From positions 198,746 through 262,745 of the forward strand of contig SEFP01000004.1 of assembly GCA_004144185.1 (NCBI GenBank): DNA of 64,000 nt. The letters run 5' to 3'. The translations under genes and the position numbers were made by a program. Shown one piece after another: positions 1 through 64,000 of this stretch (its first letter is position 1; every line of letters begins with the position of its first letter). The stretch comes from Sphingobacteriales bacterium. GTDB taxonomy: Bacteria > Bacteroidota > Bacteroidia > Chitinophagales > Chitinophagaceae. The notes below the pieces were generated by a model. The model was not told where the DNA came from. It saw only the letters and a program-made list of their open reading frames with translations, and ran no database searches.

Positions 1-958
1 CCGGATCAGTAAGCGGCTGTTTTCTGTGACGCCACAAATCCATCAGTGCTTTCCGGACCGTCAACCGCTGGAGAATGGACCATCCGGATTCGACCTGTAA
101 TTCTGTACCCTGTATGGCTAGTCTTTGCCACTGCTTCAACTGATCGGAAAGCCCTATGTCGGCCCGGCCGGCATAACGTGCGGAGGTATAAACCCATACG
201 TCCGTGCTGTGGCGCACTTTGGCATCGATATGTTGCAGACGTTCAAAAAAAGCACAGTCTTCAAGATGTGTTACCGGCGGAATCCCTCCTGCTTTTATAT
301 AGGTGGCTGCAGTCACTGCAAAGCTCCCGTTGAAATGCTGATGATGAGTAGGTGAGGGGTTGTGAGCTGTTTCCAGAACAAGAGCCTCCAATTCTGCACT
401 CAACAAACGATACTGATCGTCATACTGATGGTAGATATAGGTCGGGGCATCCAGGGAGTCAATCTCTGCCGGATCAAGTAGAATGCGTCCTCCAACGGCA
501 TCGGCACCGTTTGCAATTTCCCACTGTGTCTGGGCAATCCAATCGGGTGCTACCCGGGTGTCGCCATCAGTAGTCAGGATCAGACCGGTTCCGGAAAGCC
601 GGCGGCAGGCAGTATCCATCAGTAGCCGGCGAACATAACCGATGTTGGCGTAGCGTGGCGGCAGGGTGATATCCTCCCAGAAAAGATGCAGGGCCGGGTG
701 CTGGTTGGAAAACGCCTGAATCTGCTCCACCGAACTGTCGGTACAGTTGTTGGCCAAAAGCAGAATTTCAAACGTAGCAGGGTCTAGCGGCCGGCCCTGT
801 ACATCTACCTGACCGGCAAAAGCAGCAAGGGTTTGGGAGATGCGGGCCGCTTCATTTTTAACCGGAATCACCACGCAGGCGGTTCGTTCCGGCGCAATCG
901 GTGCTTTTGAGAATAACAGGGCAGGGCACCGTTCCGGCACCGTGTGGTTCACGTCCAT
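1..958 (-). CDS. Glycosyltransferase family 2 (partial; C-terminus lies beyond the window start)
   Basis: Absent from the ORF track because it runs off the window. Manual minus-strand translation from the ATG at 956-958 is uninterrupted: MDVNHTVPERCPALLFSKAPIAPERTACVVIPVKNEAARISQTL...LTTDGDTRVAPDW. The VIPxKNE and DGD (DxD-type) motifs are typical of the GT-A/GT2 fold. Confidence 0.7.
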   Translation of the reverse strand, partial: MDVNHTVPERCPALLFSKAPIAPERTACVVIPVKNEAARISQTLAAFAGQVDVQGRPLDPATFEILLLANNCTDSSVEQIQAFSNQHPALHLFWEDITLPPRYANIGYVRRLLMDTACRRLSGTGLILTTDGDTRVAPDWIAQTQWEIANGADAVGGRILLDPAEIDSLDAPTYIYHQYDDQYRLLSAELEALVLETAHNPSPTHHQHFNGSFAVTAATYIKAGGIPPVTHLEDCAFFERLQHIDAKVRHSTDVWVYTSARYAGRADIGLSDQLKQWQRLAIQGTELQVESGWSILQRLTVRKALMDLWRHRKQPLTDP

Positions 959-1085
959 TACCTTTTGGAGAAGCTATTTAGGTAGAAGCAAACCTGGATA
1001 AACCAGATTCCTTTAATTGAGCACCGAAAGACTTACAAATACAAAGCCAGCTTAGTATGCATAAATTTAAATATTAAAAAAATTA

Positions 1086-1103
1086 ATATATATATATATA
1101 TAT
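1086..1103. repeat. (AT)9 dinucleotide microsatellite in an AT-rich intergenic region
   Basis: Read directly: atatatatatatatatat. It lies 128-145 bp upstream of the GT2 start (958) and downstream of the DUF445 gene end (1219). Confidence 0.9.
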
Positions 1104-1218
1104 GGATTTTCCGGGTCGTTTGGAAAAAAATGCAGGGTTCGGTGCCAGGTTTCCGGAATATCGCTCTGAAATTAACTGCTGTCGCTCCTGGACAACCCAG
1201 CGGGGAAATTGGTATGCT

Positions 1219-1827
1219 TTACGCCAGCACCATCGCCAGTTGAATCAACCCGATTACAAAGCCGAAGCCGGCTGCAGCCAGCTCTACGTGACGCAGTGCT
1301 TTACCGGCTCCGGACAGTAAGGCCGTTTCCACCTTATCCAGGGACAGCGCTGCCACTTTTTCTGTTACCAGCCGCTCCAGATCAATTTTCTGTTCCAGGC
1401 TGCCGGCATATTCGGCAATAACCTTGGGCAACATCACCTCAATTTCTTCCAGCAGGCCGGTTTTAATCATCGCGGTAACGCCATCGCTCAGAAACATCGC
1501 CAGCATCGGGATTTTTTCTTTGATGCGCTCGTTCAAAAAGCCGTCGATGTGCGTTTCGATGCCGGGCATCAGCGCTTTGATTGTGCCCGGATCGCTCATA
1601 AGGCTGGTCAGGTTCCGGAACGGCGATAGCTCCGTAGCCACCCAGCGACCCAGCTGCCGGGCAATTTGTGCCTGTTTCTTTGGAAACACGCCCTGAAGCG
1701 CGAAACCCAGTATCCGGACCGGCTGGCGGGGATAAAACAGCGATTTAAACAGCAGCTTGATGGTCATCCATCCGATACCTGCGGAAAGAACCGGCAGCAG
1801 AAAAAGAAACAGCGTCTTGATATTCAT
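1219..1827 (-). CDS. DUF445-family membrane protein
   Basis: 202-aa ORF with an N-terminal TM segment (MNIKTLFLFLLPVLSAGIGWMTI) and a C-terminal TM segment (AAAGFGFVIGLIQLAMVLA). The overall pattern matches YheB/DUF445-type proteins from memory. Confidence 0.55.
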   Translation of the reverse strand: MNIKTLFLFLLPVLSAGIGWMTIKLLFKSLFYPRQPVRILGFALQGVFPKKQAQIARQLGRWVATELSPFRNLTSLMSDPGTIKALMPGIETHIDGFLNERIKEKIPMLAMFLSDGVTAMIKTGLLEEIEVMLPKVIAEYAGSLEQKIDLERLVTEKVAALSLDKVETALLSGAGKALRHVELAAAGFGFVIGLIQLAMVLA

Positions 1828-1849
1828 GGCTTTCTAAACGCGCGCAAAA

Positions 1850-8026: not shown

Positions 8027-8896
8027 CTACTGTGCTTTGCGGAGCAGATCGTGGAGGTATTTTCCGTAGCCGCTCTTAGCGTATTTATGGCCGAGCGTTT
8101 CCATCTGGCTATCATCGATCCAGCCATTGCGCCAGGCAATCTCTTCGATACAGCCCACTTTCAGACCTTGTCTTTTTTCGATGACTTCGATAAACTCACC
8201 CGCTTCGATGAGTGAATCAAATGTGCCGGTATCCAGCCAGGCGGTCCCGCGGTCCAGAATGCCCACTTCCAGTTTGCCCATCTCCAGATAGGTTCTGTTC
8301 ACGTCTGTGATCTCGTACTCGCCACGTGGAGACGGCTGGATATTCTTAGCTATTTCTACGACCTGATTGTCATAGAAGTACAAACCCGGTACGGCGAAGT
8401 TGGACTTCGGCTGTTGCGGTTTTTCTTCAATGGAAATGGCCTTTTGATTCGCATCGAATTCAACGACGCCATAGCGCTCCGGATCGGCTACCTGATAGGC
8501 AAATACGACCGCGCCGTCCGGGTTGGCTTTCTTTTGAAGCAAGGTGCCCATTCCGGAACCATAGAAGATGTTATCTCCCAGAACCAGTGCGGCGGCATTG
8601 CTACCGATAAAATCAGCGCCTAATACAAAGGCCTGCGCCAGTCCGTTGGGCTCCGGCTGTACCACGTATTCGAAGTTGCAACCGATAGCACTGCCATCAC
8701 CCAGCAGTTTCCGGAAACCTGCCTGATCATCCGGTGTAGTAATGATCAGGATGTCCCGGATCCCGGCCAGCATCAGGGTGCTGATGGGATAGTATACCAT
8801 GGGTTTGTCGTATACCGGCATCAACTGCTTGGATACGGCAATCGTGAGGGGGTGCAGACGGGTGCCAGAGCCTCCGGCCAAAACAATTCCTTTCAT
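8027..8896 (-). CDS. rfbA: Glucose-1-phosphate thymidylyltransferase
   Basis: The internal ATG at 8896 gives [18 protein letters not shown], the canonical RmlA N-terminus. The sequence reads as RmlA-type over its full length. Confidence 0.93.
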
Positions 8897-8897
8897 A

Positions 8898-9947
8898 TTA
8901 GTTGTATTGGCCCTCGTAATACTTTTGATAGTCGCCGGAAGTGACATGTTTCAGCCATTCTTCGTTTTGCAGATACCAGTCGATGGTTTCGCTCAGACCT
9001 TCCTCAAACGTTACAGACGGCTTCCAGCCTAGCTCCTGATTGATTTTAGTGGCGTCAATCGCATAGCGGCGATCGTGGCCCGGCCGGTCGGTGATATAGG
9101 TAATCAGGCCTTCACTGGTGCCCGGCGCGCGACCTAACTTCTCGTCCATCTGCTTGCACAGAATCTTAACCAGATCAATGTTTTTCCACTCGTTGAACCC
9201 TCCGATGTTATAGGTTTCACCGTTTTTGCCTTCCTGGAAGACCAGATCAATCGCGCGGGCGTGATCTTTCACAAACAGCCAGTCGCGGGTGTATTTACCA
9301 TCGCCGTAAATCGGCAAAGGTTTGCCTTCCTGAATATTGTGAATGCACAAGGGAATCAGCTTTTCCGGAAAATGGTTCGGCCCGTAGTTGTTGGAACAGT
9401 TGGTCAACACAAACGGCAATCCATATGTATTTCCGTAGGCGCGCACCAGATGATCGGAGGCCGCTTTGGAGGCAGAATACGGCGATTGGGGATCGTACGG
9501 AGTGGTTTCCAGAAAAAACCCTTCGTCGCCCAGCGAACCATACACTTCATCCGTAGAGACGTGATAAAAGCGTTTGCCTTCAAAATTGCCGCGCCAGTTT
9601 TTAAGCGCTGCATTCAGCAGATTGGCGGTACCGATCACATTCGTCTGTACAAACGCCAGTGGGTCGGCGATCGAACGATCAACGTGGCTTTCGGCTGCGA
9701 GGTGAATCACGCCATCCGGCTGGTGTTCGGCAAAGATCTGATCAATGGCCGCAGCATCGGTGATATCGGCTTTGAGAAACGTATAATTGGGCGCGTGCTC
9801 GATGTCTTTCAGGTTTTCGAGATTGCCCGCATACGTCAGCGCATCGAGGTTAAGGATATGGTGGTCGGGATACTGGGTTACAAACCGACGTACCACATGC
9901 GAGCCGATAAAGCCGGCGCCGCCCGTTATCAAAATGGTTTTGGCCAT
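8898..9947 (-). CDS. rfbB: dTDP-glucose 4,6-dehydratase
   Basis: 349 aa with [13 protein letters not shown] (Rossmann motif) and YSASKAASD (YxxxK catalytic motif). It lies adjacent to rfbA. Confidence 0.93.
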
Positions 9948-9981: not shown

Positions 9982-10839
9982 CTAGTTGTGGAGAGTTAAA
10001 GGAAAGGACTGCTGCGTTTGTCCGTTGGACACGATCGCGAGGTACACTCCAGCCGGATGGCGGCTTACATCCACCGATACGGTGTGTTGAAGGTCGGTTC
10101 CGGAAAGCGTTTCTACCTGGCACAGGTGACCCTGGACATCGAGCAATTGCAGGGTGTAGCTGGCAGTGGTCGGTTGGTCCAGGTGTACCTTCAGTGTTTC
10201 ACGGGCTGGGTTGGGATACAGGCTGAGGCCTTCGATCTGTGGCAGGGTGGCGACGGCACTGGGAATGTCTTCGTCGATGGCGACTACAATATTGTTGGGG
10301 GCATCGCCGGTTGTGCTGCCATTGGTATTGACGGCATTCACCGTCAGGTAAAATTTAACCTGACCGGAGCCTGCTGCCGGAGCCGTCCACAGCACTTCCT
10401 GTGTACCAAAGTTGGAACTGGCCATGAACACCGAGTTGTGTTCGACCAGAGACAGGTTTCCGGAAGCGATGACCCGGGTTCCGGAACCGTTTTGGAATAC
10501 ACCAGCCTGACTGTTGTTGGCCTTCACCGCCGACAGTTGAAATCCAAATCCGCTGGGTGGGGTAGCAGCCGTACTGGTGCCGCCGATGACCAACCGATAC
10601 TGGGTGCCGGGCGTATAGGTGGTGTACGGGCCACCGCTTCCAGAAGCAGCAATGAGAGCGACCGCAGGCCGTGTGCTGGCGTTGTTAGAGGCGTGGCAAC
10701 CCGTTCCGGAACAGTTGCCGGTGCTTCCCGCGCTTCCGGTCCGGTTGCCCAGACCGTTCACGGCCACACCATTGTTGTAAGATGAAAGAGCCAAGGCGCC
10801 TATAGAAAGCGTCAGTAGATAAAGGAGCGGTTTTTTCAT
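9982..10839 (-). CDS. Secreted protein with T9SS C-terminal sorting domain
   Basis: The internal ATG at 10839 gives a signal peptide ([20 protein letters not shown]) and removes the overlap with accC. The C-terminus [16 protein letters not shown]...YLAIV is T9SS-CTD-like. A CSGTGCH motif is present in the N-terminal part. Confidence 0.6.
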
Positions 10840-10882: not shown

Positions 10883-12226
10883 TTACTGCATTTTGAATGT
10901 TTCAATAAACTTCGTGGTGAAGTTGCCTTTCCGGAAGTCTTCATTCCGCATCAGTTGCAGGTGAAACGGAATGGTGGTTTTAATGCCTTCAATCACATAT
11001 TCACTCAGCGCCCGCTCCATCGTATTGATGGCTTCTTCGCGCGTTTGCGCTACGGCAATGATTTTGGCAATCATGCTATCATAATATGGCGGAATGGTAT
11101 AGCCCGCGTAAATATGGCTGTCGATCCGTACGCCGTGGCCACCCGGAGTGTGCAGGGTGGTGATGGTACCCGGTGATGGCCGGAAATCGTTGTATGGGTC
11201 TTCGGCGTTGATCCGGCATTCGATGGCATGCATCGCAGGCTCGTAATTCTTTCCGGAAATCTTGATGCCGGCGGCAATCTTGATCTGCTCTTTGATCAGG
11301 TCGAAGGAAATGACTTCTTCGGTCACGCCATGCTCAACCTGAATCCGGGTATTCATTTCCATGAAGTAGAAATTCCGGTGCTTATCCACCAGAAATTCTA
11401 CGGTGCCCACACTTTCGTAGTTGATGGCTGCAGCGGCTTTGATCGCTGCCTCGCCCATGGCTTCGCGGAGTTCCGGTGTCATAAACGGCGAAGGCGATTC
11501 CTCCACCAGCTTCTGGTGCCGCCGCTGAATAGAGCAGTCGCGCTCGCTCAGATGGCAGACGTTTCCGTACTGGTCGCCGGCAATCTGAATTTCGATGTGG
11601 CGGGGCTCTTCAACGAATTTTTCCATGTACACGCCGTCGTTTCCGAAGGACGCACCGGCTTCCGTTTTAGCGGTCGTATAGTTTTTCTCCAGCTCGCTTT
11701 CTTCCCAGACTACACGCATGCCCTTTCCACCACCACCAGCAGTAGCCTTCAGAATGATTGGATACCCCATTTCACCCGCCAGAGTCTTCGCTTCTTCAAC
11801 GCTGTTGAGTAGTGCCTTGGAGCCGGGAATACAAGGCACACCTGCTGCAATCATGGTTTCTTTGGCCGTCATCTTATCACCCATCTTCCGGATCATTTCC
11901 GGGGTGGGGCCGATAAACTTGATGTTGTACTGACCGCAGATTTCAGCAAAGCGGGCATTCTCGGCCAGAAAACCGTAGCCCGGATGAATGGCATCGGCGT
12001 TGGTGATTTCGGCCGCAGCCATGATGTGCGGAATATTCAGATAGCTGTCGCTGCTCTGGGCTTTTCCGATGCACACGGCTTCGTCGGCAAAGCGTACGTG
12101 CAGGGAGTCTTTATCTGCCGTAGAATACACGGCAACCGTCTTGATACCCATTTCGCGGCAGGTACGGATAACCCGGAGGGCAATCTCACCGCGGTTGGCG
12201 ATTAAAATCTTTTTAAACACAAGCAA
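10883..12226 (-). CDS. accC: Acetyl-CoA carboxylase, biotin carboxylase subunit
   Basis: 447 aa. [23 protein letters not shown] and the ATP-grasp motifs are canonical AccC. Confidence 0.95.
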
Positions 12227-13575: not shown

Positions 13576-14826
13576 TTAGTAATTCCCTGGCGTCCAGACC
13601 TTCCCGTTCAAGATCAGTTGGGCCACCGGATTGTTGCCGAAATCGTACGGGATCAGCGAAACCTGATTCATCGGACGGGTAAGAATCAGATTAGCCTTCT
13701 TACCAAGTGTGATGCTTCCCAGTCTGTCAGACCATTCCAGTGCCGCCGCACCATTGATGGTGATTGAGTTGATGGCTTCATGCGGCGTCATTTTCAGTTG
13801 TGTGCAGGCCAGTGTCAGCAGCAGGTTCATATTTCCGGACGGACAGGAACCGGGGTTATAGTCAGACGCAAGACAGACCGGTAGACCGGCATCAATAATA
13901 GCGCGGGCCGGCTGGTAGGAAATCCCTAAAAAGAAAGCTGCGCCCGGCAACAATACCGGCATCGTGCTACCGGTTTTCAATGCGGCAATCTCGGCTTCAC
14001 CCACACATTCCAGATGATCAACGCTGATCGCCCGGTTCCGGACGCCGGTTTCAACACCACCACTGTGGTGCAGCTGATTGGCGTGAATCTTGGGTTTCAG
14101 GCCGTGTTCCCAGCCCGCTTCGAGCAACCGGTCGGTATCTGCTGTCGAAAAGAATCCTTTTTCGCAGAAGACATCCATGTACTCGGCCAGTCCTTCGCCG
14201 GCGACCTGAGGTAGCATTTCATCGATGATCTGCCGGATGTAGCCTTCATGGTTGTCGCGGAAGGCAGGCGGATAGGCATGCGCTGCCAGAAAGGTGCTGC
14301 GTACCGGAATCGGGGCATGTTCTTTAAGCCGCCGGATGACCCGGAGCATTTTGAGTTCGGTTTCCGGAGTCAGTCCGTAGCCGCTTTTGATTTCGATGGC
14401 ACCGGTGCCCTGCGCCAGCACCTGCTGCAATCGCTGCCAGGCCTGTTCATATAACTGATCTTCGGTAGCGTGTTGCGTTTTAGCGGCCGTAGCCAGAATG
14501 CCGCCGCCACGCCGGGCAATTTCTTCATAGCTCAGTCCACGGATCCGGTTCTCAAACTCGGTTTCGCGGGTCGCCGGAAACACCAGATGGGTATGCGAAT
14601 CGACCCAGGCAGGCAGAACGATGCGGCCGGAACAATCAATCACGGTATCAGCCGTCTGTTCCGGAAGGGTGTGCATCGGACCAAAATCGGCTATCGAATC
14701 GCCATCAATGCGCAACCAGGCATTTGAAATCGTTTGGAACGTATCCATTTCCGAGCCCGCCAGTTGCAGTGTTTCAGGTGGCAGGATGCCGGCTAGGGTC
14801 CCGATGTTGAGAAGTAAAGTATGCAC
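13576..14826 (-). CDS. hutI: Imidazolonepropionase
   Basis: Amidohydrolase motifs are present (WVDSHTHLVF; HANQL; SDYNPGS). The ORF-track version (to 15129) overlaps the upstream esterase gene. I placed the start at the GTG at 14826 (VHTLLLNIGTLAG), so the start is uncertain. Confidence 0.8.
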   Translation of the reverse strand: MHTLLLNIGTLAGILPPETLQLAGSEMDTFQTISNAWLRIDGDSIADFGPMHTLPEQTADTVIDCSGRIVLPAWVDSHTHLVFPATRETEFENRIRGLSYEEIARRGGGILATAAKTQHATEDQLYEQAWQRLQQVLAQGTGAIEIKSGYGLTPETELKMLRVIRRLKEHAPIPVRSTFLAAHAYPPAFRDNHEGYIRQIIDEMLPQVAGEGLAEYMDVFCEKGFFSTADTDRLLEAGWEHGLKPKIHANQLHHSGGVETGVRNRAISVDHLECVGEAEIAALKTGSTMPVLLPGAAFFLGISYQPARAIIDAGLPVCLASDYNPGSCPSGNMNLLLTLACTQLKMTPHEAINSITINGAAALEWSDRLGSITLGKKANLILTRPMNQVSLIPYDFGNNPVAQLILNGKVWTPGNY

Positions 14827-19510: not shown

Positions 19511-19570
19511 AACCTATCTGCTTCCGGAAACCGATTTTCCGGAACTCAAAAATCACGTTTTCCCTACGTT

Positions 19571-22177: not shown

Positions 22178-22245
22178 AAGAGCCGGAAAAAGGCTGAAAG
22201 AATTGGTCGCTTTCCGGAAGTTTTCTTAAAAACTGATGCTTTGCT

Positions 22246-26438: not shown

Positions 26439-27647
26439 CTAGGCACTGCGCTTGGCTTTCAGGCCTGCGTCCAGGGCGTCCAGGAACTCTTCGGTGTAGA
26501 GGTAATGCTCGCCGTGATTCACTTTGTTGCCATGAACGGCTACGGCCAGATCTTTGGTCATCTTGCCGCTTTCAACGGTTTCGATGCAGACCTGCTCCAG
26601 TGCATTGGAAAAATCAATCAGCTCCTGGTTGCCGTCGAGCTTGCCCCGGAAGGCCAGCCCGCGTGTCCAGGCGAAGATGGAGGCGATTGGGTTGGTACTG
26701 GTCGGATTGCCTTTCTGATGCTCGCGGTAGTGGCGGGTTACGGTGCCGTGGGCGGCTTCCGACTCCATCGTTTTACCGTCAGGCGTGACCAGTACGGAGG
26801 TCATCAGTCCCAGTGAACCGAAGCCCTGGGCTACGATATCGCTTTGTACGTCGCCGTCGTAATTTTTACAGGCCCATACAAAGTTGCCGTTCCATTTCAG
26901 CGCCGAGGCCACCATATCGTCGATCAAACGGTGCTCGTACTGAACGTTCGGGAACTCTTTGGATACTTCTTCGAAGATGTCTTTAAAGCGACCGTCGTAT
27001 TTCTTGAGGATGGTATTCTTGGTGCTCAGGTACAGCGGCCATTGCTTCTGCGCAGCCATGTTGAAGCAGCTATGGGCAAAACCACGGATGCTTTCGTCGG
27101 TATTGTACATGGCCAGGGCTACGCCGTCGCCTTTAAACTGGTACACTTCGTGCTCGATAACCGTGCCGTCTTCTCCTTCAAATTTGATGGTGAGTTTGCC
27201 TTTGCCTTTGGTGACAAAATCGGTGGCGCGGTACTGATCGCCGAAGGCGTGGCGGCCTACGATAATCGGAGCATCCCAGTTAACGACCAGCCGGGGTACA
27301 TTCTGAATTACGATCGGCTCGCGGAATACCGTACCGTCGAGAATGTTGCGGATCGTGCCGTTGGGCGACTTCCACATTTGTTTCAGGTTGAATTCCTTCA
27401 CCCGCTCTTCATCGGGCGTAATCGTAGCGCATTTAACGCCCACGCCGTACTGCTTAATGGCTTCAGCGGCGTCGATGGTTACCTGATCGTTCGTAGCATC
27501 GCGGTGTTCGATACCAAGATCGTAGTATTTCAGATCCACCTCTACGTACGGCAGGATCAGCTTGTCTTTGATAAATTTCCAGATGATGCGGGTCATCTCA
27601 TCGCCGTCGAGTTCTACAACGGGATTGGCTACTTTGATTTTGGCCAT
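26439..27647 (-). CDS. icd: NADP-dependent isocitrate dehydrogenase (IDH1-like, about 400-aa type)
   Basis: [23 protein letters not shown]... and the rest of the sequence read as the eukaryotic-type homodimeric IDH. Confidence 0.93.
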
Positions 27648-27858
27648 GAACAGAAAATGTTTTGAAAAAAGAAAACGGGGTAGGGCGTCGCGAAAATAGG
27701 CTCTCCCTTCCGGAAAATTAGCTTCCGGAAACCAAAGGCGTATGTAAAACTACCGACTGTCGTCACCGGCTTTTCTATAAAATATCAGATGAGGCGATGA
27801 CCTCAACTTTTAAAGGAAGTGGAATACGTGCCACCCGAAGATCCATTGAGCAGCAGAT

Positions 27859-28323
27859 TTACCCTTTAAAAATCCGCTGGTCAAACGGAAACGGCTCCAC
27901 CGAAACTATTTGAATGCAGCTGAAAGCCCCATGCTGTGGGTTGATCAGGATATTGAAATCGCCCTGCACCACCGCTGAGGGAACCTGTAATACAGGTGCT
28001 TTTCCGGACAGCAAAAACGCTTCGCCCAGCTTCTGCGTTTCCGGACCGTGCGGAAACCGGTTCCAATTGGGGGGTAAATCTGCTGGTAGAATATGTTCGA
28101 TGGCCAAGTCGTCCGGAACCGCAATCGTCATCATACAATAATCGGTCGGCAAAGTCGCCAGCGTCAGATGAACCGCTACTTCCGCCATCGCCAGCGAGCG
28201 GTTGGAAGCGGTGTAAATCAGTTCCATACCCACCGGATTCCAGCGGGCGCCGTACAACGCCGCTCCTTTTCCGGAAAGGCTTGTTGAGAACGGCTGCCGG
28301 CACAATCGAAAAACCTCCATCAT
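27859..28323 (-). CDS. RES-domain toxin (NAD+-targeting family)
   Basis: GARWNP (R), YTASNRSLAMAEV (E) and LQVPSAVV...NILINP (S) motifs. The start overlaps the antitoxin stop (TAATG). Confidence 0.85.
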   Translation of the reverse strand: MMEVFRLCRQPFSTSLSGKGAALYGARWNPVGMELIYTASNRSLAMAEVAVHLTLATLPTDYCMMTIAVPDDLAIEHILPADLPPNWNRFPHGPETQKLGEAFLLSGKAPVLQVPSAVVQGDFNILINPQHGAFSCIQIVSVEPFPFDQRIFKG

Positions 28324-30012: not shown

Positions 30013-30016
30013 CAGC

Positions 30017-38390: not shown

Positions 38391-38837
38391 GGAAAAAGTT
38401 CTTAAGGGTATAAACTACATTTGAAACCGCATTCCGGAATGAGATTCTGTGTCTGTAACTAAAGGTAGCTGGTAAGCAGCAGTCTTCGCTTTCGAATGTT
38501 AGGTACAATCAAATAGAGCTTACCATGCCGTTCAATGGATAACATTGCCAGTCGAATTTCGGAGCCGGCTGGGGCGAAAACAACTTGTCAATCCTGGTTC
38601 TACTGAATTCGTGCATATAGGGTAGTCGATCTTCGAAACACGATACCAACATCACAGAAAAATGCGTCTCTATACAAACGCGGTCTGTGAGTTTTAGGTA
38701 GAGCTTCACGTAGAAGTAAAATTTAAAGGATAAAAGCTCTGTACACAAGGATTTGAAGCTTTAATGGTTACTTGGGAACCAAATGTTTATGTTTTCGGGG
38801 ACTTGAGACAATCGACCCGGAGAAAGATACAAAACGG

Positions 38838-38893
38838 GTTCATCCACTTTTCAAACCCGTTCATCAACTTTTGAGCCCCGTTCATCCACTTTT
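38838..38893. repeat. Three direct repeats GTTCATC(C/A)ACTTTT with exact 21-bp phasing
   Basis: Copies start at 38838, 38859 and 38880. They lie in the 637-bp AT-rich divergent intergenic region between the M28 gene and the giant T9SS gene. Confidence 0.85.
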
Positions 38894-38939
38894 TGAAAAA
38901 AGTGTGTCTTGAAGGTTGATCTTTATTAAAGTTTACTTT

Positions 38940-38963
38940 GCCATGAATCATGCCATGAATCAT
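38940..38963. repeat. Perfect tandem duplication of GCCATGAATCAT
   Basis: Read directly. Each unit contains the near-palindrome ATGAATCAT. The repeat ends 64 nt upstream of the ATG at 39028. Confidence 0.85.
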
Positions 38964-39027
38964 TTTTGTTAAAGTATACTTCTCCTGACAGACGTTGTCT
39001 GCCTGCTCCGTGAAAACGAAAAATATT

Positions 39028-42000
39028 ATGAGAAAAATCCTACTTATCAAAGTAATCACTGCCATTCTACTAGTGTGTACCGTGCCTGGCATTGAGGCAG
39101 ACGCACAGATTTCCCAAACCAACGCTACAGGATCTTTTAGCACGCAGCCTAGTTCTACTTTTACCGGGGCGGGAGAATGGATTTTTTTTTACACGGGTGG
39201 TCTTAGTCAGTGCAGCTTGGTTACCGGGACTTGGATTATTGGAAGAGCAGGCAATCAGAACCCTGTAACCCCCGCCACCTGGAGCACCGTAACCCAAGCT
39301 TACCTGGGAAATACGCTTGGTGGGGCTATTACGGTTTCTTTTAATTGCTATCATACTGGTGGGAATGATGCGACTCTGGATCTTTTCTACGGACCTACAA
39401 CGAACGGTCCCTGGACAACCATACCGGATATCCTTTCCAACGTTGGTTCCTGTGCAAACGTAACCGTACCCAGTTTTAGCGCTCCTGAACCCGGCCCCCT
39501 CTATGTACGCTTCCGCTTCCGACCAACCTACACGTATGCGACTTCCAATTCATCTTTGGAATTGGGCAATATTTCTGTAGTCGAAGCGCCTCTGCCCGCT
39601 TGCAGTGGTCTGCCCACTGCTGGCACTACAATATCCTCCCTTCCGGCTGGCTGTGGCAATGCTGCCATTCCTCTCCGGGTAAGCCCCAGCCCTAATGTGG
39701 CCGGTATTTCCTATCAATGGCAAAAGTCTGCCAATAACAGCACTTGGGTAGATATTACCGGGGCTACCACCAAATACACGTCTGTAACGCAGACGGCCGC
39801 AACCTATTACCGCCGAAAGAGTACCTGTTCGAATAGCGGGCAGACGGCCTATTCTACCGCTGTGCTGGTTACACAAGCCAATCCGGCGCTTCCCTGCTAC
39901 TGTATATCGGGGTCCACAACCGGGCTGGGTAGTCAAATTACCAATCTCACGCTAGGGACTGTTAACAACTCCTCTACATCAACTATCAGTAACGACAGTG
40001 TGGCAATTAGTGGTTCCCAGGGCATTGCCACCGGCAACACGAGTAGATACCTCGATTGGACCGGCAGCACTGTACCCATACCGAACCTGCCCCGGGGATT
40101 ACCGCAGGCATTTTCAGTGAGCCTGGCCGCTTATAATCCGATGACTGCCTTTTTGAAGATATATATTGACTACAACCAGGATGGAGATCTGCTGGACCCG
40201 AACGAATTGGTATATTCCGGTACTCCCAACCTCCTGCCGACTGGTACTGCAACCGGTACCATTACCGTACCGGCAGCGGCGCTGTTGGGAAATACGCTGA
40301 TGCGAATTGTTTCCAATGACACGGCCAGTTCTCTCAGCACGGTAACGCCCTGCAATACCTTTGAGCGGGGGGAAACACATGACTACCGGGTAAATATCAT
40401 GGGCGGCCCGGCCTGTTTCGGTACGCCGGATGTTGCAGTCGTTGCAGGTCCGGCTGATGCCTGCCCGAATCAAGCGTTTGCACTCACAGCAAGCAATTTA
40501 GACCCGTACGGTTTTCCCGGATTGTCGTACCAATGGCAGTCTTCTGCCGCAGGTGCCAATATATGGACCGATTTGCAAGGAGATACTGTACGCACGGGCG
40601 TTTCGTTTCCTACCGGTAAAACCCTTGCTAAAGATTACCGGCTAAAGGTAACCTGCGCCACTAGCGGGCTGTCGTCCTATTCGAATGTCTTCCCGGTTGG
40701 ATTGGGCGTTGGTACCTGCTTCTGCACTGCTGCCATCACCAATGCCTCTGGCTGTCAACGGTGGATCAGCAGCGTAGCCACCACAGGAGCAGTCACAAAC
40801 ATGACCAACCCCAGCGCCTGTACAGCGGGTGGATTTGCAGATTATACAATCTCCGTAACCGGTCCGACGCAGTACCGCGATTACCCGCTGAACCTAAACC
40901 TGACCTCGGCCAACAGCAGCACTGCTTGGAGTATTTACGTAGATTACGATAACGATGGTGCTTTTGCTAGCAATGAGCTGATGTACCAGAACAGTAATAC
41001 AACCGGCGGCACTACAATAGCTGCTTCCTTCGTGATACCACTGACAGCTCCGCTCGGCGTCCACCGGATGCGTATCCGGGCCGATTCCGGCGCAACGGCT
41101 GCTACCGCCTGTACGGCTACGGTATCCGGCGAGACAGAGGATTATATGCTGACCGTAGTGGAAAAGCCGGTATGTACCGGCACACCGGTCCCCGCCACCC
41201 TAATCACCACCCAGCCGTATATCTATTGCGGACCTTTTCCGGATAAGCCCATGACCCTCACTGGTGGTACGCCTACCGGCACCGGCGGGTTTACCGGAAT
41301 CATTACAACCTGGGAAAAATCGTATGATTCGGCTTTCAGCGTCATTATCCCCGCCTATTCTATAATCGGACAAAACCAATCCGCCTATTACCGGGCAAAG
41401 CAAACCTGCGCTACTTCCGGTCAGTCTGCCTATTCCTCCACCATTCTGGTGGCCAATCATGCGCCAACCGCAATTAATATCTCGCCAGCTTCCCCAGCAG
41501 TCTGCGCCGGCTCCGGCGGCACGGTGCTCTCCGCCAGTGTTAACGTTGGCCCTGGTGGTCCTGCGCTTTCCTATGCCTGGACCGCGAATAGCTACTCGGC
41601 CTGCAATAATTGCATCAGCTGCACTAACTGCAACAGCACAACCGTGAATCCGGCGGCCTCTACCACCTTTAACGTAAGTATATCGGGAGGTGGTTGCCCC
41701 GGCACCCTTCTCGTATCCCGGAATGTTACCGTTAACCCTACCCCTACGGTCCTGTCCGCAATTGCTCCTGCGGCCGCCTGTTCCGGTCAGGCCATTACTT
41801 TAACCGGGGGTGCGGATACGCCCGGTATCTACAGTGGTTTTGCGGGACCGTTTGCGCCGTCTAAGTGGAATTTCTCGCAGACGACCTCTAACGGTAAAAT
41901 AATTACTTCCGGAGCACCCAATACTGTTGTATTTATTAGCTCCGACAGCACTGCACTGGCACCCGATGGCGGAAGCGATGACTGGACTATCAACATTCCC

Positions 42001-43905
42001 AATGCCGGAAACATAACCTTCAATTGGGCCTATTCCACCAACGACAGTGCCGGGAACGACTTTGTGCGGTATATTGTAAACGGAGGTACTCCTACAAATC
42101 TTCCCGGCTTCTCGAACAGTGGTTCTAAAACCCAGTCGGGTACCGCCACGATAGCCGTGCCGGCGAACTCATCTTTCACCCTCCGGGGCCGGAGCCGTAC
42201 CAACACCGGCGGCTCATCCACCACCACCATCAGCAACTTTTCGGCACCCGGCGGATTGGCAAGTACTGTGGCCTGGTACGCTGCTCCTACGGGCGGTAGT
42301 CCGCTGGCAAATCCGGTTACGACAGGCGCGCCTGGTACCTACACCTACTACGCCCAGGCTGTGACTGCGGCGGGCTGCGGAAGTGGTTCCCGTATACCAT
42401 CCAACCCGATGACTGTACATGGTGCCGGCTGGTGGACCGGCGCAGCAGACAGCAACTGGAACACGGCCGGCAACTGGTGCGGCGGCATCCCAACCATTAC
42501 TTCCAACCTGGTGATTCCCGGTGCCACCACGGTGCCCAACATGCCGGTGCTCAATGCTGTCGGTTCTGTAAACAATCTGGAGCTGCAAACCGGTGCCTCG
42601 CTTAAGGTATCGGGCACCGGAACGCTCAACCTGTATGGCAGCCTCACCGGCAATGGTACATTCAATGCAGATGCTGCAACCGTAAATCTTGCCGGAACCT
42701 TTCCGCAATCCGTTCCTGTAATGGCAGCGGTGGGCACCCTGTCTGTGAACGGCGGATCTGTAAAAACGCTTTCCGGAAATATTCGTGTCAACACCGCTCT
42801 GAATTTTACCAATGGCATGGTAGATGTAGGCAGCAATACGCTCACGCTGGCGCCCGCGGCCACTGTCACCGGTGCATCTGCCGCTAGTTACATACGCACG
42901 TCGGCTGCCGGCGGTCGTCTCCGGCAGGGCGTGAGTTCCACACCGGTTGTGTTTCCGGTGGGCAATACCACTTATAATCCGGTAATACTCACCAACAGCG
43001 GAACTGCAGATATGTTTGCCGTAGGCGTGCGCAATGAGGTGCTGCTAAACGGAACCACCGGAATCCAGGTAGACCCGCTCAACGCCCAAGTGGTAAACCG
43101 CACCTGGGATGTGGAAGAGCAAACGCCGGGTGGCTCTAACGTAACGATGAAGCTGCAATGGAATGCCGGGGAGACCAACACGCCGCTCTTCGATTACAAC
43201 CATGTTCAGGTAGCGCACTACACCGGAGGCAGCTATAAGCTTGACTCTGCCTATGCGAACCCGAGTCTGGCACCGGCAGCGCTCGGCTATCCCGGTGCTG
43301 GGCCTTACACGGCCACCCGCAGTGGTATCCTGTCGTTTTCGCCCTTCACGGTAACATCATCTTCTATAAGCTCCACAATGCTGCCGGTAACCCTGTTGGC
43401 GTTCCGTGCCCTAAATGAGGGAAGCCGCAACAAAGTAGCGTGGGAAACAGCCGGCGAAGCAGAAATCAGCAGCTATGGGGTAGAGCGTTCCGCAGACGGG
43501 GCGGTCTTCAGCAGCATTGAAGAAATCCCTTCAAAGGGTACTTCCGGAAACTATGTGAGCTATGACCCTCATCCTAAATCTGGTCTTACCTATTACCGGC
43601 TTAAGATCAGGGCAACAGATGGCAGCCAGCGCTATTCCCAAACGGTAAGTGCTTTCCTGAAAAGCAGCGGAACCATAGAAATGACGGTGCAGCCGAATCC
43701 GGCACGGGATGTGCTGACGGTTAATTTATACGGCATACAGGATGGCTTGGTACAGGTAACCGATTTAATCGGGCGTGTAGTAACTACGGTTGCGGTGTCT
43801 GGCAGTGTGGCTCCAGTTGACGTAAGTGGGCTTGCAGCGGGTACTTATTTTATCCGCTACATAAATGGCCCTGTCACCAAGACAAGCACCGTTACAAAGC
43901 AATAG
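39028..43905 (+). CDS. Giant secreted adhesin-like protein (1,625 aa) with GEVED domains, Ig-like modules and T9SS C-terminal domain
   Basis: The ATG at 39028 gives a signal peptide (MRKILLIKVITAILLVCTVPGIEADAQ). There are two GEVED signatures (GETHDYRVNI, GETEDYMLTV) and three modules of the type SYQWQ...YYR.K.TC..SG. The C-terminus is TVQPNPARDVLTVNL...GTYFIRY. Confidence 0.8.
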   Translation: MRKILLIKVITAILLVCTVPGIEADAQISQTNATGSFSTQPSSTFTGAGEWIFFYTGGLSQCSLVTGTWIIGRAGNQNPVTPATWSTVTQAYLGNTLGGAITVSFNCYHTGGNDATLDLFYGPTTNGPWTTIPDILSNVGSCANVTVPSFSAPEPGPLYVRFRFRPTYTYATSNSSLELGNISVVEAPLPACSGLPTAGTTISSLPAGCGNAAIPLRVSPSPNVAGISYQWQKSANNSTWVDITGATTKYTSVTQTAATYYRRKSTCSNSGQTAYSTAVLVTQANPALPCYCISGSTTGLGSQITNLTLGTVNNSSTSTISNDSVAISGSQGIATGNTSRYLDWTGSTVPIPNLPRGLPQAFSVSLAAYNPMTAFLKIYIDYNQDGDLLDPNELVYSGTPNLLPTGTATGTITVPAAALLGNTLMRIVSNDTASSLSTVTPCNTFERGETHDYRVNIMGGPACFGTPDVAVVAGPADACPNQAFALTASNLDPYGFPGLSYQWQSSAAGANIWTDLQGDTVRTGVSFPTGKTLAKDYRLKVTCATSGLSSYSNVFPVGLGVGTCFCTAAITNASGCQRWISSVATTGAVTNMTNPSACTAGGFADYTISVTGPTQYRDYPLNLNLTSANSSTAWSIYVDYDNDGAFASNELMYQNSNTTGGTTIAASFVIPLTAPLGVHRMRIRADSGATAATACTATVSGETEDYMLTVVEKPVCTGTPVPATLITTQPYIYCGPFPDKPMTLTGGTPTGTGGFTGIITTWEKSYDSAFSVIIPAYSIIGQNQSAYYRAKQTCATSGQSAYSSTILVANHAPTAINISPASPAVCAGSGGTVLSASVNVGPGGPALSYAWTANSYSACNNCISCTNCNSTTVNPAASTTFNVSISGGGCPGTLLVSRNVTVNPTPTVLSAIAPAAACSGQAITLTGGADTPGIYSGFAGPFAPSKWNFSQTTSNGKIITSGAPNTVVFISSDSTALAPDGGSDDWTINIPNAGNITFNWAYSTNDSAGNDFVRYIVNGGTPTNLPGFSNSGSKTQSGTATIAVPANSSFTLRGRSRTNTGGSSTTTISNFSAPGGLASTVAWYAAPTGGSPLANPVTTGAPGTYTYYAQAVTAAGCGSGSRIPSNPMTVHGAGWWTGAADSNWNTAGNWCGGIPTITSNLVIPGATTVPNMPVLNAVGSVNNLELQTGASLKVSGTGTLNLYGSLTGNGTFNADAATVNLAGTFPQSVPVMAAVGTLSVNGGSVKTLSGNIRVNTALNFTNGMVDVGSNTLTLAPAATVTGASAASYIRTSAAGGRLRQGVSSTPVVFPVGNTTYNPVILTNSGTADMFAVGVRNEVLLNGTTGIQVDPLNAQVVNRTWDVEEQTPGGSNVTMKLQWNAGETNTPLFDYNHVQVAHYTGGSYKLDSAYANPSLAPAALGYPGAGPYTATRSGILSFSPFTVTSSSISSTMLPVTLLAFRALNEGSRNKVAWETAGEAEISSYGVERSADGAVFSSIEEIPSKGTSGNYVSYDPHPKSGLTYYRLKIRATDGSQRYSQTVSAFLKSSGTIEMTVQPNPARDVLTVNLYGIQDGLVQVTDLIGRVVTTVAVSGSVAPVDVSGLAAGTYFIRYINGPVTKTSTVTKQ

Positions 43906-44374: not shown

Positions 44375-44449
44375 TGGTGGTCTCGCGTGGAATCGAACCA
44401 CGATCTGGAGCTTCGGAAACTCTTATACTATCCGTTGTACTACGAGACC
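44375..44449 (-). tRNA. tRNA-Arg (anticodon CCG)
   Basis: Manual cloverleaf: acceptor GGTCTCG/CGAGACC, T-arm CGTGG-TTCGATT-CCACG, anticodon loop TT-CCG-AA, encoded CCA, 75 nt. Confidence 0.85.
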
Positions 44450-44522: not shown

Positions 44523-44597
44523 TGGTACGGCGTACGGGAATCGAACCCGTCATTCATCCGTGAAAGGGATGCGTCTTAACCGATTGACCAACGCCGC
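44523..44597 (-). tRNA. tRNA-Glu (anticodon UUC)
   Basis: Acceptor GCGGCGT/ACGCCGT (G1-U72 wobble), T-arm ACGGG-TTCGATT-CCCGT, anticodon arm CATCC-CTTTCAC-GGATG, encoded CCA, 75 nt. Confidence 0.85.
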
Positions 44598-49522: not shown

Positions 49523-49561
49523 TAAAACGATTCCGGAACGCATCTGCCTGGTTTGAACCTC

Positions 49562-55039: not shown

Positions 55040-55057
55040 GATTGATTCCGGAAGTCA

Positions 55058-59696: not shown

Positions 59697-59852
59697 GTTT
59701 TTGTAGATTCGCTTACTAGCTTAAACTGTGCAAGCAACTGTTTTTGTACAGGCGACCGTCATTCCGACTGTGAGGGAGAAATCTCCCGTAAACTGAGGGC
59801 ACCCTTATAGAGAGGAAGCAAGCCTTCCGGCAAATTCCGGAATACACCAACT

Positions 59853-59887
59853 AAAACATCCGCAGCCCTTTGCAAGGTGCGGATGTT
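59853..59887 (-). terminator. Stem-loop downstream of the acidic protein gene
   Basis: 10-bp stem AACATCCGCA/TGCGGATGTT with an inner CCTT/AAGG pairing. On the minus strand it is followed by TTTT. Confidence 0.55.
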
Positions 59888-59910
59888 CCGGAATCTTCAA
59901 AAGCAGGTTA

Positions 59911-61301: not shown

Positions 61302-61324
61302 AGCCTGTTCAATTGGAACAGGCT
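61302..61324 (-). terminator. Rho-independent terminator after the Mqn radical-SAM gene
   Basis: 9-bp stem AGCCTGTTC/GAACAGGCT with loop AATTG. On the minus strand it is followed by TTTTTT. Confidence 0.75.
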
Positions 61325-61349
61325 TCTCACTTAAGTACTAAAACTAGTA

Positions 61350-62501: not shown

Positions 62502-62512
62502 TTCGGAAGTGA

Positions 62513-63850
62513 TTATCGAACGATGATTTTGTGTGTAAATGCGTTGGTTCCGGAATAGCCTTTGAGGAAATACATGCCTTTTCCAAAGCGTGCCAGATCC
62601 AGCGAACCAGATCCGCCCGGAGCCATCTCATTCAGATGCAATACCTGACGGCCGGTTAAATCCAGTACGGTCAGCTGTTCGAGCTTCTGACGTGTCAGAT
62701 TCTGTAACGTAATGGCTCCGGTTGTCGGATTGGGATGCATCGAAACCAGTGTCCCGGCTTCCGGAACGGAAGCAACGGCCTGGGCCGGTTGTTGAGTAAG
62801 GGAGTAGGAGTTTCCGCCTACGGCAATCTGATTCCGCATCCGGATCACCTGCTGCTTGGTAAACAGCATCATGGCTGCATCGTCCACATAATCCATATAG
62901 TTCATGAACATGATTCCGTTTCCGGAAGGCGAGCAGCCGTCAAAACGCGGAAACGTAGGGCAGCCTGACTGGCAATACGTTGCATCATCCTGTGGAGGTG
63001 TATCGGAGATCCCGTCATCAGGAGTACAACCTGCTGCATCGCCCCAGATATGAGCCAGCTCAAAATAATGTCCGATTTCGTGCGTCAGCGTACGGCCCCC
63101 GTCGATGGTACGAGGATTGAAATACTGACTGGAAAACTCCCGCTTTCCAAAGGCGCCATAGTCGACTACAACTCCCAGATCAGCGCTGGTAAAGGTTTGT
63201 CCTCCGAAGGAGGCCCCTATAAAGGAAGGTGGAATACACAATCCCAGAATGCTTTGGTCGGTTTTGATCACCCAGATATTCAATTGCCTGGCCGGATCCC
63301 AACCATTGAGACCCCCGGAAGCCGTTCGTTTAGCGCCTGCAAACCCGTCATTGCTTGTAAATGCCGAACTGTTGGTGATGATCTTGACTTCGATTCCCGG
63401 TGTGATCGTATTGGCAGACGTTCCGGAAGCCAGCTGAAAACTGATGCCCGTATTGCCGATGACCGGTACAAAAGGAGTCGGCACATTGCCAATATCGCTG
63501 TTGGTAGCCGAGTAATCGGCATTGAGTGAGGCCAGTTGGCTCGTTACCCGGCGGATGATCCCCGTGTCCAGTCCCATTTGCAGGTATTGTCCGGCGCTTA
63601 CCACCACATGAAACACTACCGGAATCGGATTTTGAGCAGCCGTTTTCTGAAGGGCGCCCTGTGCCGCGCGGGCTTCCGCCTGTTGTTGCGCTGCATCCAA
63701 CCGTTCCTGCCGGGCCTGCATAAAGGCAGGGTCAGACGTTGTCAGTTGTTGCAGCAACAAGGTGTTGCCACACCGGTTGGCGGCCGTCTGGGCACCCGAA
63801 CCGGTTGCCAGCAAACTGCCTGCCAAAGCAAGTAGAATCGGAAGTTTCAT
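62513..63850 (-). CDS. M43 (pappalysin-like) zinc metalloprotease with T9SS C-terminal domain
   Basis: HEIGHYFELAHIWGD zinc motif, signal peptide, and C-terminal MHPNPTTGAITLQ...GMYFLKG. Confidence 0.8.
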   Translation of the reverse strand: MKLPILLALAGSLLATGSGAQTAANRCGNTLLLQQLTTSDPAFMQARQERLDAAQQQAEARAAQGALQKTAAQNPIPVVFHVVVSAGQYLQMGLDTGIIRRVTSQLASLNADYSATNSDIGNVPTPFVPVIGNTGISFQLASGTSANTITPGIEVKIITNSSAFTSNDGFAGAKRTASGGLNGWDPARQLNIWVIKTDQSILGLCIPPSFIGASFGGQTFTSADLGVVVDYGAFGKREFSSQYFNPRTIDGGRTLTHEIGHYFELAHIWGDAAGCTPDDGISDTPPQDDATYCQSGCPTFPRFDGCSPSGNGIMFMNYMDYVDDAAMMLFTKQQVIRMRNQIAVGGNSYSLTQQPAQAVASVPEAGTLVSMHPNPTTGAITLQNLTRQKLEQLTVLDLTGRQVLHLNEMAPGGSGSLDLARFGKGMYFLKGYSGTNAFTHKIIVR

Positions 63851-63895
63851 AAAGGCTATTTCCTGAAAATTAAGTTCCGGAACATACTTAAAATG

Positions 63896-64000
63896 TTAAT
63901 TCCGGGTTTTAAGTTCATCCCGGATTTTAATGGCTTTGACATAATCCTCCTGCTCCAGTACCTGTTGCAGGAGTGTTTCCAGATCTTCCTTGCTCATCGA
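63896..64000 (-). CDS. UVR-motif protein (C-terminal fragment, or a 33-aa ORF)
   Basis: Manual translation gives ...MSKEDLETLLQQVLEQEDYVKAIKIRDELKTRN-stop. EDYxKAxxxRDE resembles the UvrB/UvrC (UVR) motif. The frame remains open to the window edge. Confidence 0.35.
   Translation of the reverse strand, partial: SMSKEDLETLLQQVLEQEDYVKAIKIRDELKTRN

Follow-up and report, generated by a model that had tools for sequence, protein, structure and literature searches.

A hyper-abundant palindromic octamer resembling the cyanobacterial HIP1 in a clade of Chitinophagaceae and in a phage lineage

A stretch of 64,000 nucleotides (contig SEFP01000004.1, positions 198,746 to 262,745; hereafter the window) from an uncultured Chitinophagaceae bacterium (Bacteroidota) of soil or water was found to harbor 122 exact copies of the palindromic octamer TTCCGGAA, corresponding to 1.9 copies per kb or ~1906 per Mb. 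TTCCGGAA is a bare palindrome of eight bases and not a mobile element. With moderate confidence, and by analogy, it is considered here as an iterated palindrome of the HIP1 type, HIP1 (GCGATCGC) being the highly iterated palindrome (HIP) of cyanobacteria; it would then constitute a mark that is dimeric, based probably on a methyltransferase, and read in repair or recombination. The HIP-type palindrome itself was already known, and what is new here is the sequence, the host phylum and the presence in phages.

Copies of TTCCGGAA start at positions 589, 1151, 1613, 2034, 2163, 2321, 2636, 2813, 2884, 3102, 3521, 3607, 4462, 5033, 5287, 6025, 6521, 6769, 6993, 7664, 8551, 8709, 9363, 10098, 10458, 10479, 10704, 10929, 11251, 12563, 13563, 14659, 14852, 15043, 15110, 16343, 16875, 17569, 17776, 17854, 18566, 18713, 19522, 19537, 19882, 20423, 20924, 21083, 21604, 21801, 22212, 22256, 22603, 23476, 24111, 25465, 25675, 26299, 27708, 27723, 28269, 28724, 28948, 29352, 29452, 30115, 30646, 30791, 30836, 31380, 31901, 31916, 32845, 34041, 34475, 34803, 35033, 35462, 35729, 35930, 36310, 37176, 37847, 38432, 42771, 43542, 44207, 44960, 45262, 46367, 46558, 47688, 47974, 48121, 48546, 49343, 49531, 50398, 51443, 52294, 53476, 55046, 55703, 56383, 56538, 57258, 57805, 57931, 58310, 59684, 59835, 59886, 60229, 60849, 61603, 61699, 62005, 62548, 62759, 62920, 63421 and 63875. 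A preliminary description of this DNA, made by eye, had put their number at about 120, close to the exact count; its 17 example positions were all right except 30790, which is really 30791.

By a wide margin, TTCCGGAA was the top 8-mer of the window, and the next ten 8-mers all overlapped with it. Dinucleotide shuffles (n = 100) contained 1.42 copies on average and five at most, while Markov models of order 0, 1, 2 and 3 predicted 0.96, 1.45, 5.5 and 12 copies, respectively. The observed/expected ratio of copies amounted to 127 for order 0, 86 for the dinucleotide shuffles and 22 for order 2. A maximal-order Markov model, which had been proposed as a check, predicted 115 copies and was rejected as uninformative because the 7-mers and 6-mers from which it is computed were themselves produced by the motif (TTCCGGA occurs 160 times, TCCGGAA 152 times and TCCGGA 211 times). 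This model does indicate that, given the core, each of the two outer bases is favoured with little dependence on the other. Enrichment was judged instead by low-order models, shuffles and comparison with relatives.

Comparison of the flanks of the window copies revealed no conserved base outside the eight of TTCCGGAA. Relatives differing by one base were frequent, as already noticed in the preliminary description, and this held for variants at positions 1 and 8 (ATCCGGAA, 18 copies; GTCCGGAA, 9; TTCCGGAC, 16; TTCCGGAT, 13; TTCCGGAG, 9). With the three possible variants summed for each position, 30 deviants were found at position 1 and 38 at position 8; sums were modest at positions 2 and 7 (16 and 8) and at background level at positions 3 to 6, which form the CCGG core (4, 5, 10 and 7, respectively). 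The 211 occurrences of TCCGGA comprised 122 full octamers, 68 with one matching outer base and 21 with neither, the latter being close to background. Other NTCCGGAN palindromes were not enriched in the window. The motif is thus nested, with CCGG contained in TCCGGA and TCCGGA in TTCCGGAA, as GATC is contained in CGATCG and CGATCG in GCGATCGC. TCCGGA is the specificity of BspEI, AccIII and Kpn2I, and both TCCGGA and CCGG are known Type II and common methyltransferase specificities.

Most copies (79 %) were situated inside genes, on both gene strands and in all three frames, where they encode F-R-N/K (21 copies), x-P-E (40 copies) or S-G (35 copies); the remaining 26 lay outside called genes. 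This distribution had been correctly described before, and every peptide quoted for it was recovered; the tabulation of frames also indicated that the motif was confined neither to one frame nor to one dipeptide. Copy density reached 3.7 per kb in spacers versus 1.7 per kb in coding DNA. Within genes, codon choice was close to saturation: P-E following a codon with a TT ending was written CCG-GAA in 40 of 41 cases, S-G with T before and A after was written TCC-GGA in 35 of 39 cases (~5 % expected), and F-R followed by AA was written TTC-CGG in 21 of 23 cases. With the amino acids fixed, the choice of codon pairs was three to seven times the independent expectation, and at least 90 % in full context. 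All eight positions are driven because each of them falls on the synonymous third base of a codon in some frame; moreover, which base is chosen at one end of the octamer is contingent on those at the opposite end. The pressure therefore reads the complete octamer in the DNA, and it is strong enough to saturate synonymous choice and to change amino acids. The earlier proposal that the constraint acts on DNA and not on protein is borne out by the occurrence in all frames and in spacers together with the saturated synonymous choices.

Proteins carried the imprint of the motif as well. It was used in 96 of the 152 motif-compatible peptides of the window (63 %) and in 20 of 1080 (1.9 %) in 72 relatives, with intermediate or high usage in the closest loci compared here (26/43 in three motif-rich loci, 4/25 in locus L004 and 8/70 in L005-8). 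Per 1000 residues, FR[NK] occurred 1.33 times in the window versus 0.32 times in relatives (4x) and [FLIV]PE 2.82 times versus 0.78 times (3.6x), while SG[IMTNKSR] attained 1.8x the frequency of the relatives. The motif thus measurably distorts the proteome. Its sites were also encountered within conserved housekeeping genes, with replacements of K by R, T by S and D or Q by E at positions that are conserved otherwise, such as FKK to FRK in an rmlA-like gene, and NTGK to NSGK, VPQ to VPE and VPD to VPE elsewhere.

The tRNA-Arg(CCG) gene that the preliminary description had placed at 44375-44449 (-) is indeed located there, adjoining tRNA-Glu(UUC) at 44523-44597 (-). CGG represents 40 % of the arginine codons; 34 of ~379 CGG codons (~9 %) follow TTC and 21 are within full motifs. 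With so few CGG codons following TTC, this tRNA gene is not tied to the motif, and the link that had been drawn through CGG is incidental.

Relatives of the window were gathered by a scan with HutI (imidazolonepropionase), retaining one genome per species, and 80 related loci were compared. HutI places the window in Chitinophagaceae near Taibaiella, Flavipsychrobacter and Rurimicrobium, the best matches being uncultured metagenome-assembled genomes (MAGs) with 80-84 % protein identity. Only three of the 80 loci, all from MAGs (L001, L002 and L003), were motif-rich, with 1.0-2.0 copies per kb. They align with the DNA of the window only in hutI, so that the bias is not a local artefact, a possibility considered in the preliminary description. 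L004 and L005-7 displayed 0.14-0.19 copies per kb and the remaining loci about zero, the observed/expected ratio of copies being 1.1 in L009-80. In a neighbour-joining tree of this single gene, the window and L001-3 formed one clade with L004, likewise a MAG (CBDFFP01), as sister. The three motif-rich MAGs are JAEVZP01 (OH_PBB_176), DDEO01 (UBA1952) and JAEWBT01 (OH_PBB_261). The hyper-abundance is a trait of this one clade, composed of the window and three MAGs, within which sites are only partly shared.

Among other palindromes, only weak excesses were observed in the relatives, namely AATGCATT in Chitinophagaceae bacterium MMS25-I14 (L010; eight times in 21 kb versus 0.72 expected) and GGGATCCC in Taibaiella soli (L005; four times in 21 kb versus 0.11 expected). 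GGGATCCC is the HIP1 variant of Yellowstone Synechococcus strains. T. soli (strain R1-15), which is in culture, is weakly enriched in TTCCGGAA as well, with four copies in the same 21 kb; jointly with three neighbouring genomes it uses 11 % of the opportunities versus a baseline of 1.9 %. A metagenome scan for TTCCGGAA-N7-TTCCGGAA yielded mostly chance pairs, with few moderately enriched contigs (L171, L258, L165 and others) among the matches listed.

Individual sites could be followed in L004, which is syntenic with the window over ~10 kb at ~76 % DNA identity. Of 15 window sites with a DNA-level alignment it has the motif at 2, and of 23 in the codon alignment likewise at 2; four of the 15 sites are one base away and the other non-matching sites differ by more. 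The one-base differences between the window and L004 are transversions (G/C at positions 4 and 6, G/T at position 2). At motif sites, orthologues displayed diverged sequence of the same length with nothing inserted, so that, judging from these alignments, copies of TTCCGGAA arose by point substitutions and not by insertion. The copy at 8709-8716 (-) lies in the rmlA-like glucose-1-phosphate nucleotidyltransferase gene (8027-8896) and reads F-R-K where relatives have F-K-K (FKK in 17 of 19 relatives); the aligned site of L004 is TTTAAAAA, and the motif was created together with the change from K to R. The copy at 9363-9370 (-), in the dTDP-glucose dehydratase-like gene (8898-9947), falls on a conserved F-P-E (FPE in 19 of 19 relatives); at this site and at just one other of the window, L004 has the motif too. 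Gene accC (biotin carboxylase, 10883-12220), whose product is 95 % identical between the window and L004, contains a copy at 10929-10936 (-; F-R-K) that is common to L004 and a second one at 11251-11258 (I-S-G-K) where L004 reads TTCCGGCA. In hutI (13576-14826), the copy at 14659-14666 (-; L-P-E) corresponds to TTCCGGAA in L002, TGCCGGAA in L003, TGCCGGAT in L001 and TGCCTCAA in L004, a pattern showing turnover of the site by point changes.

Two explanations bear directly on these observations. Under the first, the octamer would result from the composition of proteins or from codon usage as a by-product, or would be the core of a mobile repeat such as repetitive extragenic palindromic (REP) sequences or miniature inverted-repeat transposable elements (MITEs). 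REP and MITE sequences are likewise repeated palindromic DNA in bacterial genomes; they have, however, a length of 20-150 bases and a location in spacers, and each is inserted or copied as a unit, whereas TTCCGGAA has eight bases, is mostly genic and arose by substitution. Besides the fact that most copies are genic, all other evidence (three frames plus spacers, biased codon pairs, absence of flanks, in-frame sites with nothing inserted) is against this explanation, which was rejected and can practically be dismissed.

The second is the generator put forward in the preliminary description, taken literally: a Dcm-like C5-methyltransferase coupled to Vsr, the very-short-patch repair of which would convert T:G mismatches to C:G within the site. 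The core of the octamer does hold suitable methyltransferase sites, and very-short-patch repair is known from E. coli as a cause of shifted frequencies in words related to Dcm sites; the case of Dcm and Vsr resembles the proposal made here in that the frequency of a methyltransferase site is shifted by a repair enzyme reading the same site. That effect is small, however, and bears on C/G positions only; enrichments known from this repair are few-fold at most, as opposed to the ~80-fold excess of TTCCGGAA, which includes T/A positions. The T, T, A and A of positions 1, 2, 7 and 8 are driven as hard as the C/G positions, and in dependence on the rest of the octamer; very-short-patch repair alone is therefore insufficient. 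In addition, the transition neighbours expected from deamination (TTTCGGAA, TTCTGGAA, TTCCAGAA and TTCCGAAA) were not depleted, with 3-4 copies each versus 1-4 expected, a comparison of low power, and the one-base differences from L004 were transversions. This explanation is accordingly held to be very unlikely.

Outside Chitinophagaceae, the motif was encountered in phages. A scan of viral contigs uncovered contig L083 (13 kb, 45.7 % GC) with 17 dispersed copies of TTCCGGAA. It represents a siphovirus structural module whose capsid protein shares 65 % identity with that of Clostridium phage phiCp-A. Six relatives that were assembled independently and have 89 % identical capsids displayed 0.8-1.1 copies per kb, and the motif-rich phage lineage as a whole (L083, L263-L268 and L270:1-5800) 0.8-1.3 copies per kb. 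These six relatives carry a lysis cassette of Gram-positive type and a serine recombinase. Related phages with capsids 77 % and 68 % identical contained almost no TTCCGGAA. In motif-rich phages, the motif fills packaging and structural genes and is absent from ~11 kb that comprise early, lysis and lysogeny genes. Between two phage relatives at 78.5 % identity, motif sites were conserved in 4 of 13 and 4 of 8 cases versus 22 % for control 8-mers. No methyltransferase or Vsr was detected in the portions of the motif-rich phage genome that were reached by walking. These phages are temperate siphophages of Firmicutes type, and the motif recurs in them independently of Chitinophagaceae. Taken together, the two occurrences lead to the view that the octamer is a trait of particular host lineages that has arisen at least twice; the phage pattern fits a portable, host-borne and sequence-specific factor.

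GC-rich phages related to L083 (L271-L273, 61-63 % GC) displayed another word, the asymmetric GCCGGAGG, of which 21 kb contain 15 occurrences on one strand and a single one on the opposite strand, in several frames. Possibly, this is an abundant word with strand orientation that belongs to a different host.

Along the window, copies were interrupted by one motif desert of 4.3 kb (38440-42770, +), which lies in a secreted-protein gene of 4.9 kb (39010-43905). This gene, which starts at 38995-39010 and ends at 43905 (+), encodes 1631-1636 residues with GEVED, Ig-like and type IX secretion system (T9SS) sorting domains. A gap of at least 4339 bases was obtained in 2 % of random placements. The gene uses the motif in 2 of 12 compatible peptides versus 94 of 140 elsewhere (Fisher p = 0.0009); its GC content at third codon positions is 0.557 versus ~0.61 elsewhere, and GC content dips to 0.478 at 38-40 kb. 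Its 3' end looks more native and contains the copies at 42771 and 43542. The desert gene is probably recently acquired DNA still uncolonised by the motif, recent acquisition being, in view of the unused opportunities and the lower third-position GC, the simplest reading. The fixation bias reads the octamer as a whole, reaches saturation, and is dependent on how long DNA has resided in the genome.

Outside the desert, copies were spaced more evenly than by chance, with about one per 0.5 kb. The coefficient of variation of spacing in the two segments flanking the desert was 0.74 and 0.68 (P = 0.0016 and 0.005); the desert was left out of this test after it had been seen, and the coefficient is 0.95 when it is included. 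The largest gaps outside the desert measured 1.4 and 1.6 kb versus ~2.3 kb expected. Among 140 control words of similar abundance, this evenness was matched by one in the first segment and by none in the second; no control word had a largest gap this short.

Even spacing and short maximum gaps are points in favor of a binding site selected for itself, in which an abundant nucleoid or chromosome-organising protein would have its copies kept by selection. A palindrome suits a dimeric DNA-binding protein, and a role of HIP1 in chromosome structure was argued for by Xu et al. 2018 (PMC5861425). Such an explanation nevertheless requires thousands of perfect sites under selection that saturates synonymous choice to at least 90 % and changes conserved residues, which would be much stronger than typical selection per site. 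Individual sites moreover appear not to be conserved between the relatives compared, and the phage structural genes with the motif are left unexplained. Direct selection of this kind is regarded as unlikely.

Spacers between convergent genes were particularly rich in copies. All four such gaps of the window (22178-22245, 49523-49561, 55040-55057 and 59697-59910; 339 bases in total) have the motif, with five copies altogether (22212-22219, unstranded, and those starting at 49531, 55046, 59835 and 59886), often at most 35 bases from a stop codon. This corresponds to ~15 per kb versus 1.9 overall, with 0.65 expected and P ~6e-4 by a Poisson estimate. The excess could be due to these spacers being the least constrained DNA, or to a role at transcript ends.

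Some copies were found in close pairs. Three pairs were exactly 15 bases apart (19522-19544, 27708-27730 and 31901-31923, unstranded) and could form an 8-9 bp hairpin, and one pair was 21 bases apart (10458-10486). Predicted RNA folds of the motif-pair hairpins ranged from -10.6 to -16.4 kcal/mol; the 15-base pairs consist of an 8-bp stem and a 7-base loop, with about -11 kcal/mol. The total of close pairs in the window was not in excess over chance, and relatives lacked the 15-base spacing (theirs being 10, 20, 21 and 22), which is probably incidental.

Several of these features recall the uptake sequences of Neisseriaceae (DNA uptake sequence, DUS) and Pasteurellaceae (uptake signal sequence, USS). 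Like TTCCGGAA, DUS and USS occur about once per kb, are evenly distributed and clade-specific, arise by point mutation in genes, enrich the tripeptides that they encode, are lacking in recently acquired genes, and are frequent just downstream of genes. In uptake sequences, the encoded tripeptides are about doubled and recently transferred genes are without the motif (Findlay and Redfield 2009, PMC2817400), which accumulates in genes only after transfer (PMC2817400). In contrast to TTCCGGAA, a perfect palindrome of eight bases without flanks, they are asymmetric sequences of 9-12 bases, and they depend on competence machinery, with a known receptor in Neisseria.

The octamer might accordingly be an uptake or recombination signal, similar to those of Neisseria and Haemophilus or to Chi, driven by preferential exchange of DNA of the same kind without methylation-directed repair. 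The density of ~1-2 per kb, which is typical of uptake sequences, the even spacing and the restriction to one lineage are all in line with such a signal. So are the turnover of sites and the enrichment of convergent-gene spacers, as well as two signatures described in PMC2817400, namely tripeptides enriched 2-4 fold and a probably imported gene without the motif. HIP1 itself was recently proposed as an uptake signal (bioRxiv 10.64898/2026.06.24.733823). Set against this, known uptake sequences and Chi are not palindromic, and Chi is strand-oriented. Furthermore, we know of no uptake sequence and no general natural competence in Chitinophagaceae. The near-host density in phage modules is more easily obtained by a process acting on all DNA that replicates in the cell, although temperate phages of competent hosts could also acquire an uptake signal. 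An uptake or recombination drive of this kind is the main rival of the methyltransferase-based mark, and is possible, if rather improbable.

Other short words are over-represented and read by DNA-processing enzymes, as is supposed here for TTCCGGAA: these are Chi, the FtsK-orienting polar sequences (KOPS) and architecture-imparting sequences. They differ in being asymmetric, replication-oriented and enriched few-fold, whereas a palindrome carries no orientation.

The closest resemblance is that with HIP1, the only parallel that is well described, as suggested in the preliminary description and confirmed here for every property that could be tested. HIP1 attains 0.3-2.7 copies per kb (300-2700 per Mb), tens to hundreds of times over expectation (Elhai 2015, PMC4390886), and highly iterated palindromes were delimited by more than 0.2 copies per kb and an enrichment of more than ~16-fold (Xu et al. 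2018, PMC5861425). As with HIP1 and the alternate HIPs of Elhai 2015, TTCCGGAA is a palindromic octamer and the top 8-mer, with density and enrichment within these limits, and its occurrence in genes in all frames and in spacers is not explained by codon or amino-acid usage. Deviants of HIP1 are concentrated at the first and last base, and the inner CGATCG is enriched only within HIP1 (PMC4390886); TTCCGGAA shows both features, its one-base deviants being concentrated at the two outermost bases and its inner 6-mer, of Type II methyltransferase type, being enriched only inside the 8-mer. The resemblance therefore holds for density, fold enrichment, deviant positions and inner 6-mer. In addition, the density of TTCCGGAA is near the saturation predicted by Elhai, and the trait is lineage-specific and patchy, as it is for HIP1.

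The two palindromes differ in sequence and in phylum, TTCCGGAA being found in Bacteroidota and in a phage lineage of Firmicutes type. HIP1 has known cognate methyltransferases, and positional conservation as well as a periodicity of 10-90 kb were demonstrated for it; conservation of its positions across genomes exceeds the neutral expectation (Xu et al. 2018), a finding that spoke for selection on HIP1. Very few bacterial genomes hold octamers as frequent as HIP1 (Elhai, PMC3497702). Like the preliminary description, which was aware of no report of TTCCGGAA as such an element, searches of full-text literature returned no description of it as an iterated element. Literature searches on the octamer itself or on methylomes with TCCGGA yielded only primers and unrelated papers, those on over-represented palindromic octamers in Bacteroidetes yielded nothing relevant, and all iterated-palindrome papers returned were on cyanobacteria.

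The mechanism envisaged for TTCCGGAA is the one proposed for HIP1, carried over by analogy. A symmetric dimeric protein would read the half-sites TTCC/GGAA; the most plausible candidate for this reader is an orphan or restriction-modification-derived cytosine methyltransferase with TCCGGA as core site. A step reading the methylation, either post-replicative mismatch repair or uptake and recombination of DNA of the same species, would then give alleles with the full site a transmission advantage, and near-sites would be turned into full sites, as by a ratchet, until they cover the genome. Under a methylation-linked repair ratchet, sites should saturate at about one per kb and cover the genome evenly, while a drive by uptake or recombination of same-kind DNA predicts enriched tripeptides and absence from imported genes. 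For HIP1 itself, these two models now converge. Methylated HIP1 raises transformation in a cyanobacterium (bioRxiv 10.1101/2024.09.10.611283), and a Chi-like role was suggested for it by Kamoku and Nielsen.

Several points weigh against such a methyltransferase-based mark. No methyltransferase, Vsr, MutH-like or competence gene was present within the 64-kb window. The repair rule of Elhai for HIP1, in which repair is directed by a methylated C preceded by G (PMC4390886), cannot apply as written, TTCCGGAA being devoid of a GC dinucleotide; this missing step counts against Elhai's specific model and not against membership in the HIP class. Site conservation in phages was 8/21 versus 22 % for controls, and the nearest bacterial relatives are at only ~76 % DNA identity. 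Finally, the evidence fits repair bias, uptake or recombination bias and direct selection alike.

The genes among which the copies of the window are dispersed are mainly of housekeeping and cell-envelope type, including accB, accC, efp, hutI, rmlA- and rmlB-like genes, tpiA, ftsY, isocitrate dehydrogenase and glycosyltransferases, and several window proteins have T9SS sorting tails, a sign of Bacteroidota. Five genes at 28873-36220 (-) encode a VWA (CoxE-like) protein, a DUF5682 protein, an AAA_5 MoxR-like ATPase, a DUF5691 protein and a 437-residue protein without Pfam match; this cluster resembles a conserved module and has normal motif density. A RES-domain toxin gene lies beside an Xre-type antitoxin gene at 27859-28823 (-), and the motif pair 27708/27723 is directly downstream. 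The isocitrate dehydrogenase (26439-27647, -) is closest (89 %) to that of Runella, of order Cytophagales, and not to those of Chitinophagaceae; its gene has neither motif copies nor motif-compatible peptides. In a collection of 5.8 billion clusters, neither an exact match nor a relative of this protein with at least 90 % identity was found, and, judging from this one protein, the species looks unsampled there.

In a broader perspective, it is tentatively suggested that hyper-abundant palindromic self-marks are general and repeatedly evolved. A portable and sequence-specific factor, probably a methyltransferase with its reader, would stamp a whole genome and its temperate phages with an octamer particular to the lineage, for the recognition of same-kind DNA in repair, recombination or uptake, and TTCCGGAA would have had two independent origins, one in Chitinophagaceae and one in a host-phage system of Firmicutes. 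If this is true, two new and unrelated test beds would become available for research on HIP1, the function of which has been debated for 30 years with all data from one phylum. With a second hyper-abundant palindrome, of other sequence, present in another phylum and in the phages of a third group, it can be tested comparatively which genes travel with the trait, whether the sites are methylated, and whether the bias operates in repair, in recombination or in uptake. By comparison of the motif-rich clade with the motif-poor sister, a ready phylogenetic profile is available for the responsible factor, and the motif may serve as a sharp marker for binning contigs of this lineage, flagging recent imports and linking phages to their hosts.

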